Shown here one piece after another: positions 55,482 through 61,900 of a stretch of 64,000 nt of DNA. The DNA is taken from NCBI GenBank assembly GCA_010356995.1, contig ML996691.1, forward strand, positions 1,122,174-1,186,173, written 5' to 3'. Within the stretch, counting starts at the first letter, position 1. The number at the start of each line of letters is the position of its first letter. A model generated the notes under the pieces. That model worked only from the letters and a program-made list of their open reading frames with translations, had not been told where the DNA came from and did not search any database. This DNA is from Trichodelitschia bisporula (taxonomy: Eukaryota). The position numbers and the translations under genes are program-made.

Positions 55482-57410
55482 TCAGTTTGGCCGCCTGTTG
55501 CGGCTCGGAGCAGCTGTCGCACGAGGCCGATTTGCGGCGTAGGGACTGCCGCCTACGGGACCACCCTCGTTCGTCTCATGTGCCGTCTTTTGTCGCTTTC
55601 CGTCGGCCTCCTCGTCATCCTCCTCATCGCGGCCACGCTTGTTCGAGATGCTCGGCTGCATGCTCGTGTACAAAGGCACATAGTTCTCGCCGCCATTGAC
55701 GCTACGCGGTTCCATCACGCTATACACGTTACTGGATGCTGCAGGCGCCGTGTTGCGTGCTGGAGTACTATAATCGCCAGCCCATTGCGGAGCGGACCCA
55801 GATGCGGTTCGAGGAGTGGCGCGTCCAGAGCCATTTTGGTGTGGCGATGCAGCGATATTGTCCTGCGGCACGTCAGACGAGATTGGTGTTACGCCCGAGT
55901 TCGGATATTGATATGAGCTGCGCGCCGTGCTGTAGTAGTGGTCCGACTCCTGCTGGTCGTGCTCGGCCTCGTCATCGCCCGCCGGGTGTTGGCTGCCCGA
56001 CTGGCTGAGTAGTCCGTCGTGCGCAGACTTCACGTCCCCAGAGTCGCCTTCGCCAGCGCGGGGAGGAGGCGCCATCTCGGACTTGGGATATGCTTGGCCG
56101 GGATATCGCATTTGGTACTGGCCCGGTTGGCTTGCGGGCGCGGTCTGTACGGGGCGGTAGTTGTCGTAGGCCTGAGACGTTGAGTATGATGGGATACCGG
56201 AAATTGGTGGTGTTGACACGGGAGGTGTTGGTACATTGCGGGCGTTGCTGAGACCAGTGTCAATGTTCAAAGATTGTGAGTTGCCGTTATTCCATTCGTA
56301 CGTGTTTGGCTGCTGGCTGCCCATGTTAAAGTGGCCCGTAGCACTGGCAGGAGGGGTTGGGAAAGTCGCAGCACGCTCGATCAACGGCCGTGGTGGTGGG
56401 TGCGGTGCCAACGAGTGGGGGGGTGCCGGTTGTGAGGCAGGAACGGCATTGCCCATGGAATGGTGATGCACCAGCGACTGATTTGACGTCGGGGGGAAGC
56501 GAGTATCCCTGCGACGGTCGGCTACCGCTAACGGGTTGCTTTGGGGAACACCAGGACGAGGGTTGTTTGTAGGATGATATAATAGCGCTCCAATATCATG
56601 CACGAAAAGCGGATACAGTGCCTCCGTGATCTTCTCCTTGTTGGCGAATTCCAGCGCCCGTTCGAAAGGAATCCTGAGAAGTCAGTTTGAGTCGGTCATT
56701 TTTCAGTTTACTTACCAAACACCCTTGAGGTGCATGGGCCCGATCTTGACAACGTGGCGGGTCTTCTCGCTCTTTAGAATGCCATCCCGACGGCCGCGCG
56801 TCATACCCGCCACATTTAGCAACTTGGTGCCGTTAATCATATGATTGTCTGCGTACGTTAGCGGATATCAAAATTTAACAAAAGGCAGAACAAACCTTCG
56901 CGCCGTGCGACGCACACACCCTTTGCTTCGACCTGGAAGCAAAGGCTGCCCTCATCTTCCCACAAGGTCGCCGTTACTCTGGGCTTCATGCCAGGAGGTG
57001 CTATTTGGCCACTGGTGTCAAACCCGGGGCCGTTGCTGTATTGCGAGCTCGTCAGGGATGTGGAATTTGGCGCTGACGACATCGCTGCTCAAGTTAGCAC
57101 GACTCATACAGGTATTGATCACCATACCCGGTAATGAGGGTGGTTGGGGCATCATAGACATGGACGTCGTAACAGGAAGGACGGGGTGCACGGGGAGAGG
57201 CCCAGGCGGAGGTGCCGCTGACATACCGGCATACTGATATTGGCCGTACGATGACGAGGGTCCAGTGTACGTCTGGTGTCCCGATTGCAACGGGGCAGGT
57301 TGATACGCATAATGACCCAGGGTTGGCGGTGGTCCTGACGTCGCAGCATGATGTGAGAGTGCCATATGGTTCTGATGAACGTCGTTGTACGGCGCAATTG
57401 CAGAATTCAT
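55482..57410 (-). CDS. stuA: APSES transcription factor StuA/Asm-1, ~598 aa from the first AUG. Exons 57410-57128, 57084-56896, 56848-56716, 56673-55482. A CUG start at 57803 would add 131 aa
   Basis: APSES domain after splicing: [109 protein letters not shown]. Also [17 protein letters not shown] and C-terminal KRGRDEEDD. Confidence 0.97.
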
Positions 57411-57803
57411 GCTGCCGTGAGAGTACTCTGACTGAAAGTGGAACGGAGGAGACGTGTGCTGGGATGACGTAGTTCCGTACGGGGACTCTTGATCGTTCAA
57501 CGTCCCGGCACGGGAAAGCGACTGGGCGGGGGTGTTATCGGGAGAAGGTGTCTTGAAGCCGGTCGTTCCTTGGCCGTTTACTGACGGGGAAAACGAAGTG
57601 GCGGAACTCGCACTGCCGTTATACACGGAAGATCCGCTAAAGGATCCGCCCCGAGGGGAGGGGGACGCCGAATTGGACTGCGCCTGTATCTGGGGTAGCG
57701 CCGGGAGCCGTTCACTGTATGCTAGCCGTGGTGTGCACTGGGGGTTGCACCACGCTGCTTCGCCGCCCCGGGAGTTGACCTGGGAAATCGAGGGGAGAGC
57801 CAG

Positions 57804-58983
57804 TTTTGCGTTGTTCAATTTACTCGGCTTTCGCGCCAGGTATCGGGACCCTTCCAACTGCAGAGCTGGGAGAGAAAATCGTGTACTGCAATTGCACGGA
57901 TTAGGTACTGCGGAGGGACCGAAGCAAGCAGTTCACAACTTACTTGATCTGCGCAGGTAGCCGATGCTGGTACGCGCAGAGATTGTTGCGACGGTACGAA
58001 TCAACTGGTCGTGACGGTCGAGTTTATAAGGTTGTATCAAACGGACGGTTGCTTTCCAATGCAGCAACGACGTTGATGTGGATGGGGCAACCTGGATTGG
58101 GACGGCACGTGTTAGCGGGCTTAGCTTTCTCTGGCGACTCAGCTGCACGCTCTAAGCGCGCGATAATGAGATGCGGCTGACTGACGAGCACGATAAGGCT
58201 CCGACATAATCAGAGCCCAAGAGCAATTATAGAACACGTACCGGTGACACGAGGCTAAAAACACGACTCTAGGAAGATCTGGAGGCTCGCAGTCGGAGGA
58301 GAAGCGAGACAGTAGGGCCTGCGTAGCGGAAAAATAGTCGTTCCTGCGGGTTCGTGCTCCTGACAATGGGGAATTTTATAAAGCAGAACTCCAACGCTGC
58401 GACGATGCGAAGTCGTTATGGTCGTAAGAAATTCGTTTCGGGGTTTGCTTCGGGCCGTTTCGTGGGGGCAATGGATCGTGAGGGCGGCAGCCAACGCAGT
58501 TGACAGGATACCAAAAAGATATTGGTCGAGATGCGTAAGAACTGGTAGACGTATTGAAAGCACTCTACCCGCCGGGAGACAGAGCGTTGGTAAAATCGGT
58601 GCTGATTGCGGGGAATTGGTGGGAAAGGTTGCGAGAGAACTGGTCTCGAAATGCGCAAGACGGTGATGATTTGGGGGGATCGTGAAAATTCGTAAAAAGT
58701 CGTAATCTCGTAGCCGGCACACACGCGCACACGCTCCTATGGATACAGGAATCGTCGCAAGAAAACACACAATGGGTTGAAGGAATAGTCGTGTGCGTGT
58801 TGACGGTACAGCAACCTGCGCAGAGCGGAAGGAGAGAGGTCAGCAAAAGGACTACGCGATGAACAATTGCGCAGGAAGCACGGTAGGACGAAGATGGCAC
58901 TACACTGGTTGGACCAGCACGTAGCCGCTGAGAGGTGGGAAGTGAGGGGAGTGTGCGAGTGGGTTGGATGGTGGGGGAACGAA
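57804..58983 (-). promoter_or_regulatory. Long spliced 5' leader of stuA with two candidate leader introns (58241-58092 and 57943-57858)
   Basis: Intron signals GTACGT..GCTAAC..CAG and GTAAGT..CCTAAT..CAG; minus-strand ATG is almost absent. The 5' end of the transcript is unknown. Confidence 0.6.
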
Positions 58984-61900
58984 CATGCACTTCAATCTGC
59001 GGGTGGAGAATGGTGAGGGGTGGAGGATTGCGTGGTGTGGTGAGAGCGAAGAGAGGTGGAGGGGGAGGAGACGGGAGAGTGGAACCGCGAGAGAGGACAG
59101 CTGCAAAATGCAGACCCAATGCGGGAGGGGGTGGGGGAATCGGAGGTTTAGAAACGGAGAAGGGAGGGGGAGAGGGGTGGGTGGTAAGGTGGGTGGTAGG
59201 TGGGTGGATGGGGAGGAGGGGGGGGGGTGGGAGGTTGGGATGTGACCACTAACCAGTCCGCGGAGGGCGGCTGGGTCTGGGGCGCCCGGCCGCTGGTGCA
59301 GCTGGTGCGCTGTGGCCTGTGTTGTCGTGCCGGGTGCCTCTGAGATAGGCGAAGGGCTAAGGAAGAGAAAGAGGCGCGAGAGGCGGAAGCTCGGGCAGGG
59401 CCAGGCGGACCACCAGCAAATGTGTCCTGGCCGCTACACATGCACACACCTTCCCTACTTCTGTCTCTATCCTCTTCTCTCTTTATACGCTGTACAAACC
59501 CACACTCCGGGGAGGGAGTAGAGTCGATAGTAAGAGATGTTGGTTGGGGAATGGGGAGAAGAAGGAAAGTGAAGTGAGAAAGAAAAAAAAAACAAGATCG
59601 AAAGGGAATAGTGGTGGTGGGCTTACCCGACGAACGGTTCAAGACGCGATTGAGGCGGAGTGAGCTCCCCGTGTGTGAACCACTTGCGAGAAAGGAAAAA
59701 GCCCTGTGGCTGGTGTATAAACTTTTCACTCTTGAACCACCGGACACGAGCCGTCAGGTCAGCCTTGGAGATTTGGCGAATCCGGGCCGAATGTCGTGGA
59801 GGAAAAGGACAAGAGAGGAAAGAAGTCTGTCAAGAAAGATCCAGGCGGACTTTTAGTTGCTCAATGTAGAAAATATGGATGAGAGAGGGTGAAGGTGAGA
59901 ATATGGCGAGAATGCTTGCCAATGCTGCTTGTGCTGCTGTTGCTGGCTAGCCTGCAGGATGCGAAATGCTTGGTCTTCTGGGGTCAAGGAAGGTTAGACG
60001 GTAGTGGTGCTTGACCTCCGGACATCAAGCTGCTGGTCGAAGTGGGTGAGGAAAATGAAGATAGCGAACGTAATGTCACGGCCGAGAAAAGCGGCAGCGT
60101 TTCCGTCCAAAAGAGTTCCCAAGAAGCTCAAGAAAGCTTCTAAGGAAGGGGGTGCGCGTCGAGTGAGAAACTTGTTCCTGAGTTGAGTGTGAAGTCTCTC
60201 TGCACCCCGTACATCGGCAAAGGATGAACAACTGGCAAGGCGGACAAGGTCGTGTACTATGTCGCTTTGCCGCACTGGCCGCTTGAATTCCTTTCCTTAG
60301 ATCCTGTGAAAAGAGTACTTTCCCCCTTGGGTCTGAGTTGAAAGCAGGTGCAACGGTTCAACACAAAAGACGACTACGCGTAGCCGTGTTGCCGGTTGAA
60401 GTGAAGCAGTAAGAACAAAGGTCTCAGAATAATAGCGAGCGGGACGGCGCGTTGTTGCTGGGATCAGAAAGGGCCAGGCGAGCCACAGGCGCGCAGGACA
60501 AGCTACAGGACGCAGGTCGAAAGATAGATAGTACGGAGGGGAGGTGGGTGGTCGGGGAAGCTAACGGGGGTATGGTTGAAGGTGGGGGGAATATGTGTGC
60601 GTGTCGCTTACTGCAGTAGACGAAGGAAGAGGGGAGGATAGGTAACCTTAAAGACGAACAGGCAAAAGATGTGCCAAATTACTTGGTGACTTGTGTCTAG
60701 AATTATTCGGCGCAGCGAATGCCGGTTTAATTCAACAAATCCAGCCAGATTTCACAAAAGGGCAACAGAGGAGGCGTGCTTGGATGGGATGGAGGGGGGG
60801 TAATGCTTGGTAGAAGGGTGTGGGTGTGGAGTGAAGAAGGGAGGGGGGGAAGTGTGGTGCTCCCTTTTGGAGCTTCAACTTCTTTTTCAAACCATGGAGC
60901 ATTTCTCGCTTCGCTCTCTCCCGCGGCTCACTCTCTCGCTCTCGATTTCTCCGGTGGGCCATGAGCCCCCTCGCGAGCCCACGAGTCCCGGCGCACGATT
61001 TGGGATACACTTCCTACGGGAAGCTCAACCAGGACCATGGGAAGTAAGCATAAGAGGGCAAAAAGGCCTTTGCCCCGATTCATCTTCAAAGCTTGAACAT
61101 CCCCATCCTATCGTCACGCCTTCCGTGACTGCCAGCAAATTCGCGAAGGAAAGATTGAGCCCGGCCAGCTGTGTCCAACGGAGCTCGTTCATCCTGAAGC
61201 AAAGCCGCGCAGCAAATCGGGGGTCGGAAAGGGTACGAAGAGAGAGGGGCAGGGCAAACCGGCGGTGGTGTGGCTGGCCCAAGAGAACCATTGGCCACAC
61301 CCGGCACGAAAAGAGTCTTGGGGGGGCCAAGAGTCGCGAGTCGACGGCTTTTTGGACAGGCCTTCCATGTCCATAATTTTCGCCTCTCTTCTTGCTCTTG
61401 TGGCTTGAGAGCCTTTTCCACGGTCTCTTTTCCTACCCTAGGCGGCTTTTGAAAGGGTTGAATTGAACTGTGCGGCGTACCATGCATGGGAGGGGTGGTT
61501 GGTTGGCTGACAAGTTGATGGTGAGATGGGAAAATAGGAAGTCGGGAAAGAGAGACAACACGATGGTAGTACCGTTGTGTTCATCCACGACAATAGCTAT
61601 CCGCACCTCGTCTTCGCTCCATACGGCATATGCTCTTTGATATCTCTCATGTCCATATCTACCCGTTTCCGCGTGTCGACGATGACACAAAGCAGGGCTC
61701 TTGGCAGGTTCGCAGGCTGGAAGTAGCGGGAGCGGAAGTGCAAGATGAGCGGAAGAATGAGGGTGGAGAGTGGAGACTTGGTGGAGGAGACGAGTGAAGC
61801 CGGGTGTGGTGGGCGAAGCGAAGCAGACTGACGACAAAGACTTGAGCATGGAGTTGTGACAGAGAGTGAGAGAGTCACGGAAGTTGCTTGAGCTTTTGCC

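Follow-up and report, generated by a model that had tools for sequence, protein, structure and literature searches.

The window, a 64,000-nucleotide stretch of Trichodelitschia bisporula DNA, carries on its minus strand the gene stuA, which encodes an APSES transcription factor; all positional statements on stuA below refer to that strand. StuA regulates development, sporulation, secondary metabolism and virulence in fungi and is among the most studied factors that do so. The annotated protein (P0001) has 598 amino acids counted from the AUG at 57410, is 100% identical to the product of the window and carries a precomputed assignment to the family PF04383 (KilA-N). Two orthologues, P0002 and P0064, score above the KilA-N cut-off, and several of the matching proteins are named stuA by their sources.

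An initial annotation of this DNA proposed that stuA also encodes a longer protein, begun upstream of the annotated AUG at an in-frame CTG. The CTG that it placed at 57803-57801 is there, in the strong context it described (gcaaaaCTGg, with A at -3 and G at +4), and the 131 codons that follow translate as quoted and contain no Met. Two of its figures turn out to be conservative: the frame, said to be open over at least 149 codons before the AUG, runs without a stop for 174 codons in genomic DNA and for 185 in the spliced mRNA, and the 393 nt said to be free of ATG belong to a run of 540 nt, from 57950 to the AUG at 57410, with no ATG in any frame. In genomic DNA the frame ends upstream at a TGA (57935) that lies inside a leader intron. 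With 598 amino acids in the annotated form, the long form would have 729, the two sizes originally given. By composition-based arithmetic, the chance of an open 131-codon frame is roughly 0.01 and that of zero ATG in 540 nt roughly 0.001; the comparative evidence for the extension is far stronger than these figures. The features around the two start codons are the following.

57801..57803, minus strand: proposed CUG start of the long isoform, with the +4 G at 57800; CTG in 40 of 40 related loci.
57804..57816, minus strand: conserved initiation context, positions -13 to -1 (here ...AACAACGCAAAA), from a comparison of 18 lineages.
57411..57803, minus strand: N-terminal extension, 131 codons without Met, characterized by pN/pS (0.36), composition and pLDDT.
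57408..57410, minus strand: annotated AUG, start of the 598-aa short isoform (P0001), in the context agcATGa with A at -3.

The structure of the transcript comes from two public runs of one sample, kept as contigs. That these runs are RNA was itself a guess from their label, and they were read as spliced RNA because the contigs join GT..AG introns: seven are joined, all on the minus strand, and three of these are the introns of the annotated coding sequence. The contigs run without interruption from the stuA coding sequence up to about 59152 and thus include the proposed start codon. Three introns are removed from the leader; counted from the first covered base, its spliced form extends over 972 nt before the CUG at 57803 is reached and over 1365 nt before the AUG.

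58985..59152, minus strand: leader exon 1; X1 record 3 covers 58982-59152, depth drops beyond about 59123, and the 5' end is approximate.
58816..58984, minus strand: leader intron 1, 169 nt, GT..AG; joint 58812/58982 skips 169 nt, cut +3, in both runs.
58737..58986, minus strand: sole upstream AUG of the spliced leader with its 26-codon uORF in another frame; the uORF begins on the first splice junction and its stop codon ends at 58737.
58092..58241, minus strand: leader intron 2, 150 nt, GTACGT..CAG; joint 58089/58240 skips 150 nt, cut +2, in both runs.
58024..58026, minus strand: in-frame TAA that closes the stuA frame in the spliced mRNA; between it and the AUG lie 185 open codons, none of them ATG.
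57886..57943, minus strand: leader intron 3, 58 nt, GTAAGT..TTGCAG, which holds the TGA at 57935; joint 57885/57944 skips 58 nt in both runs.

The initial annotation had named two arrangements that would tell against a CUG start, namely an upstream AUG exon spliced in frame and a transcription start downstream of 57803. Neither occurs in the assembled transcript, which has an in-frame TAA (58026) and no in-frame AUG in its leader and spans the CUG region up to about 59152. Because contigs lose rare isoforms and cannot place the 5' ends of RNAs, this result describes the assembled form, beside which there could be a minor transcript that has a different 5' exon or starts internally. The assembled leader is nearly devoid of AUG, with one upstream AUG in 1365 nt; the expectation for the 972 nt that precede the CUG is about 9.6 ATGs. 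An ATG within leader intron 2 is spliced out. Just upstream of the end of RNA cover lies a long pyrimidine-rich (C/T) tract (59100-59260, minus strand), which fits a fungal core-promoter or transcription-start region.

A second species shows the same continuity across the site in its own RNA. Three of its mRNA contigs (L004, L005 and L006) are colinear with a genomic contig (L003), from which they differ by the removal of two leader introns and the coding introns, and in all three the exon is uninterrupted across the CTG, with the closest splice junction 225 nt upstream. The single leader uORF also recurs, with 19 to 31 codons and similar AUG contexts, in the mRNA-like contigs L004-L006, L024, L025 and L016, and three of the uORF peptides, that of the window among them, have a short motif in common near their end. 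The uORF may be conserved and act together with the CUG start.

Downstream of the annotated AUG, the RNA contigs delimit the coding exons as follows.

57085..57127, minus strand: coding intron 1, 43 nt, from RNA joints with ends checked.
56849..56895, minus strand: coding intron 2, 47 nt, within the APSES domain, from RNA contigs.
56674..56715, minus strand: coding intron 3, 42 nt; joint 56672/56715 skips 42 nt, cut +1.
55482..56673, minus strand: last coding exon with the stop codon at 55482-55484, from the ORF list and identity with P0001.

Coding intron 1 has alternative donors at 57127 and 57226 that share one acceptor and occur at similar contig depth in both runs; use of the donor at 57226 skips 142 nt, keeps the frame and removes 33 codons from the Pro-rich region before the APSES domain. 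In the second species, L005 and L006 skip 57 and 52 nt of the last coding exon (L003 5256-5318) and L004 skips neither, which suggests alternative splicing of the C-terminal region there.

Whether the open frame is translated can be judged from how it has changed among relatives. A metagenome scan yielded 40 loci that encode the extension; together with the window they represent 25 distinct extension sequences in 18 lineages of less than 90% nucleotide identity. These lineages are related, mostly near Pleosporales judging by protein sequences, so the lineage counts given here are not counts of independent events. In the codon-level comparison proposed with the initial annotation, the CUG and its context are conserved and purifying selection begins at the CUG. 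Over the 153 pairs of the 18 lineages the extension has a median pN/pS of 0.357 and a maximum of 0.58, and over the 145 unsaturated pairs a median dN/dS of 0.178, against a pN/pS of 0.947 for control codons -40 to -5, which are unconstrained and effectively unalignable. Variable columns in the extension (132, 18 lineages) number 124 at third codon positions, 93 at first and 85 at second positions. Frameshifts or stops in orthologues had been named as evidence that would speak against translation; the frame remains open through the extension in all loci that are complete, and the two others (L036 and L013) are truncated by the end of their contig. All curated models of T. bisporula (P0001) treat the stretch as 5' UTR, as it would be if it were an untranslated leader conserved for a function at the RNA or DNA level. 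The codon-periodic substitutions, the pN/pS of 0.36, the frame open in all complete loci and the lack of conserved RNA structure leave that idea almost no credibility, and it is already contradicted by the coding-constraint data.

Protein searches place the extension well beyond the metagenome loci. Within the Dothideomycetes it occurs in StuA orthologues of Tothia, Aulographum, Venturia, Aplosporella, Periconia, Plenodomus, Phyllosticta, Pyrenophora, Eremomyces, Aaosphaeria, Delitschia and Didymella. A profile search added Aspergillus saccharolyticus, whose model is flagged 'partial' and begins a few residues before the motif, five Penicillium species and the lichen fungus Caloplaca; for Venturia, Aspergillus, Penicillium and Caloplaca the site was compared at the level of protein sequence. 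The N-terminal motif is present in 53 of the 72 stored proteins examined, and the residue aligned to the CUG is Leu in 51 of them, Met in one (Venturia nashicola P0005) and shifted by a small insertion in one (Delitschia). A cluster mate of P0005 from a second V. nashicola assembly (P0073) likewise begins with Met at the aligned position. The Met-starting annotations of V. nashicola would represent a natural AUG variant of the site, and we count them in favor of the CUG start. No Met occurs in the extension, which covers 109 to 141 residues before the canonical start, in any of the 53 motif-bearing proteins.

Annotated N-termini of StuA clash even within species: the models measure 628 to 859 aa in Pyrenophora tritici-repentis, 817, 877 and 966 aa in Bipolaris maydis, and 646 and 774 aa in Alternaria alternata. 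Inconsistent models include P0012, P0087-P0095, P0102, P0103, P0113, P0115 and P0118, and other models are flagged 'partial'. Upstream of the aligned Leu, the annotations share only the few residues directly before it. This looks like the work of gene callers imposing an ATG on a gene that starts with CUG.

At the DNA level the aligned Leu codon is CTG in 40 of 40 metagenome loci (38 by motif search, L012 and L013 by eye). Twenty columns of the alignment hold an invariant residue with a degenerate code, and the CTG column is the only one in which a single codon is used; elsewhere, two conserved Leu columns draw on 4 and 5 different codons. The surrounding context is equally fixed: A at -3 and G at +4 are constant across the 18 lineages, and -9 A, -7 C, -6 G, -4 A, -3 A and -2 A are invariant in 18 of 18. 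These invariant positions include third codon positions while -5, a second position, varies, so that the conservation from -13 to -1 has a non-coding pattern, and among the 18 lineages there is no conservation beyond -13.

The boundary of conservation has a possible explanation in splicing, since AAAG|CTG resembles a 3' splice site: the extension might be translated from an AUG in a different 5' exon, made by an alternative promoter or splice form and joined near this point. Gene predictors do build such models, as in the start of Pyrenophora P0012 and the long upstream parts in Tothia, Aulographum and Bipolaris; A. nidulans stuA reportedly has two promoters, as Wu and Miller are said to have described in 1997; and contigs drop rare isoforms. 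Set against this, the T. bisporula RNA contigs and the three mRNA contigs of the second species are unspliced across the CTG, the upstream parts in the predicted models vary from one annotation of a species to the next and show no shared conservation, and the leaders of 717 to 1030 nt are nearly free of AUG, as scanning to a weak start demands. A splice acceptor, moreover, would not fix all three bases of the next codon, yet the CTG is invariant. We consider another 5' exon quite improbable as the source of the extension, and a splice acceptor was rejected as the cause of the conservation boundary for the same reasons.

Translation of the extension might also begin at another near-cognate codon farther upstream. 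Four candidates, TTG 57818, CTG 57839, TTG 57857 and CTG 57863, do lie in the open frame above 57803, and near-cognate starts are usable in clusters, as a study of Neurospora crassa cpc-1 reports (PMC5487733). None of the four is conserved in position, the sequence above -13 is unalignable with a pN/pS of 0.95, and their contexts are weaker (C at -3 for CTG 57839, for example). Four lineages have in-frame stops shortly upstream of the CTG, at codon -8 (L024), -10 (L038), -12 (L026) and 11 codons upstream (L012/L013); in L024 the stretch from the stop to the CTG lacks any near-cognate codon. All 38 loci tabulated are without an in-frame ATG in the interval that separates the upstream stop from the CTG. 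A start at one of the upstream codons is accordingly very unlikely.

A hairpin about 15 nt downstream of the start, of the kind that could assist near-cognate initiation, was also considered and rejected. A conserved hairpin downstream of the CUG is unsupported, with a consensus fold of -5.99 kcal/mol and 0 of 14 pairs compensatory, and the window sequence after the CUG folds no better than its shuffles (z +1.19).

If some ribosomes passed the CUG and went on to the annotated AUG, the stretch between the two codons should be poor in AUG in every frame, and it is. The sequence from CTG to AUG contains 12 ATGs summed over the 18 lineages, with 0 in T. bisporula, against 67 expected from mononucleotide shuffles, 22 from codon shuffles and about 178 in the next coding stretch scaled to equal length; ATG density in the extension is thus about 15 times lower than right after the AUG. 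The same depletion extends through the leader, as ten mRNA-like leaders of 717 to 1030 nt, the one in the window included, contain 0 to 2 ATGs against 8 to 11.6 expected. At the annotated AUG, position -3 is A both in the window and in 17 of 17 metagenome lineages. AUG avoidance of this kind is what would be expected if ribosomes that skip the CUG must reach the AUG, and two isoforms are therefore likely.

The avoidance is strong and not absolute, because 11 of the 18 lineages (L001, L002, L007, L008, L010, L015, L021, L024, L025, L026 and L038) keep one out-of-frame ATG. It lies in the +1 frame about 75 nt before the AUG, arises from a TAT-GG (Tyr-Gly) codon pair and is lacking in T. bisporula; its ORF has 25 to 28 codons and ends at or just beyond the main AUG. 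It could reduce the output of the short isoform in those 11 lineages.

Both forms could in principle exist with the short one made from a transcript that starts downstream of the CUG rather than by leaky scanning. Contigs cannot show the 5' ends of RNAs, and two stuA transcripts are said to occur in A. nidulans. The avoidance of ATG in all frames between CUG and AUG, with its roughly 15-fold rise in density after the AUG, would be expected only if scanning crosses this stretch, and we assign an internal transcription start a low probability.

Taken together, the comparison and the transcript structure support the reading that a longer form of StuA has very probably been overlooked, one begun at a conserved CUG that lies 131 codons upstream of the annotated AUG. 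It is likely, in our estimate, that initiation at the CUG at 57803 gives a 729-aa StuA and that leaky scanning to the AUG gives the 598-aa form. Ribosomes scanning the spliced leader, which is about 970 nt long and nearly free of AUG, would reach the CUG at 57803 first, and its strong and deeply conserved context would lead a fraction of them to initiate there. Near-cognate starts are, as an established rule, decoded with Met-tRNAi. The product of this initiation would be the 729-aa StuA, whose first 131 residues would make up a disordered module that is rich in Ser and Pro and carries SP/TP sites and short conserved motifs, and ribosomes that pass the CUG would cross 393 nt without an AUG and start at the AUG at 57410, giving the 598-aa form.

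The extension itself is 21% Ser and 11% Pro, is rich in Gly and has nine SP/TP sites. Its conserved islands are short motifs, and a search for Pfam families on it returned 0. AlphaFold2, run on the extension alignment, gave a mean pLDDT of 51.5 and no secondary structure, so that the segment is predicted to be disordered. From these features we infer a disordered regulatory module, possibly a target of phosphorylation. Initiation at the CUG, production of both isoforms and a regulatory role of the module, which would probably be phosphorylated, are thus the parts of the model that go beyond the transcript and the alignment.

N-terminal extensions started at near-cognate codons have precedents. 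The N. crassa regulator cpc-1, the homologue of GCN4, has conserved extensions of this type, and its leader is long and contains uORFs (Ivanov et al. 2017, PMC5487733). It resembles stuA in several respects: both are fungal transcription factors with a leader of more than 700 nt, one or more uORFs, a conserved AUG-less in-frame extension and a shorter AUG form. They differ in that cpc-1 is a bZIP factor for which near-cognate initiation has been shown biochemically and by profiling, whereas StuA is an APSES factor with one invariant CUG and comparative evidence. The terms StuA, asm-1 and APSES each occur 0 times in PMC5487733. The same paper cites the Podospora anserina bZIP factor IDI-4, for which a CUG start conserved in N. 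crassa has been proposed; as there described, IDI-4 shares with StuA a proposed CUG start of a fungal transcription factor, based partly on conservation. For IDI-4 the CUG is the sole proposed start, whereas in StuA the CUG and the downstream AUG would give two forms.

In mammals, C/EBP-beta (LAP*/LAP), c-Myc, FGF2 and PTEN-alpha are known as proteins with dual CUG and AUG starts. They are like the proposed StuA case in that leaky scanning yields isoforms differing by an N-terminal module, but they belong to another kingdom and are unrelated, and the StuA leader is much longer and nearly AUG-free. A further case is stuA of A. nidulans, a member of the same family whose leader is likewise long and contains short ORFs, and which is likewise linked to control at the level of translation. 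Wu and Miller, in 1997, reportedly attributed the control exerted by that leader to mini-ORFs, with the AUG form taken as the protein and two promoters. No literature linking StuA with non-AUG initiation or a CUG-started extension was found in a search that lay largely outside subscription journals. Extensions of this kind are known; the StuA case concerns a prominent regulator and is apparently conserved across classes.

An ancestral origin of the CUG-started extension in the StuA of at least three classes, the Dothideomycetes, the Eurotiomycetes (including Aspergillus and Penicillium) and the Lecanoromycetes, has somewhat less than an even chance. For genome annotators, the case offers a clean comparative signature of non-AUG starts. 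Published studies work with the AUG-started form; StuA of Alternaria alternata, for example, is treated as a protein of 631 aa (PMC10715145). If the CUG start is real, annotated StuA N-termini are unreliable and many published gene models may leave out part of the protein, and constructs for tagging, complementation and overexpression built on the AUG model omit a conserved module of 110 to 140 residues. The known translational control of stuA would at the same time gain a concrete mechanism. If the extension is ancestral, the classic 'AUG' StuA of model Aspergillus species would be only the shorter of two isoforms, and the ratio between them would be set by the long leader, which has almost no AUGs and a single conserved uORF. 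That ratio would couple the translational state of the cell, through start-codon stringency and eIF2 status, to developmental decisions.
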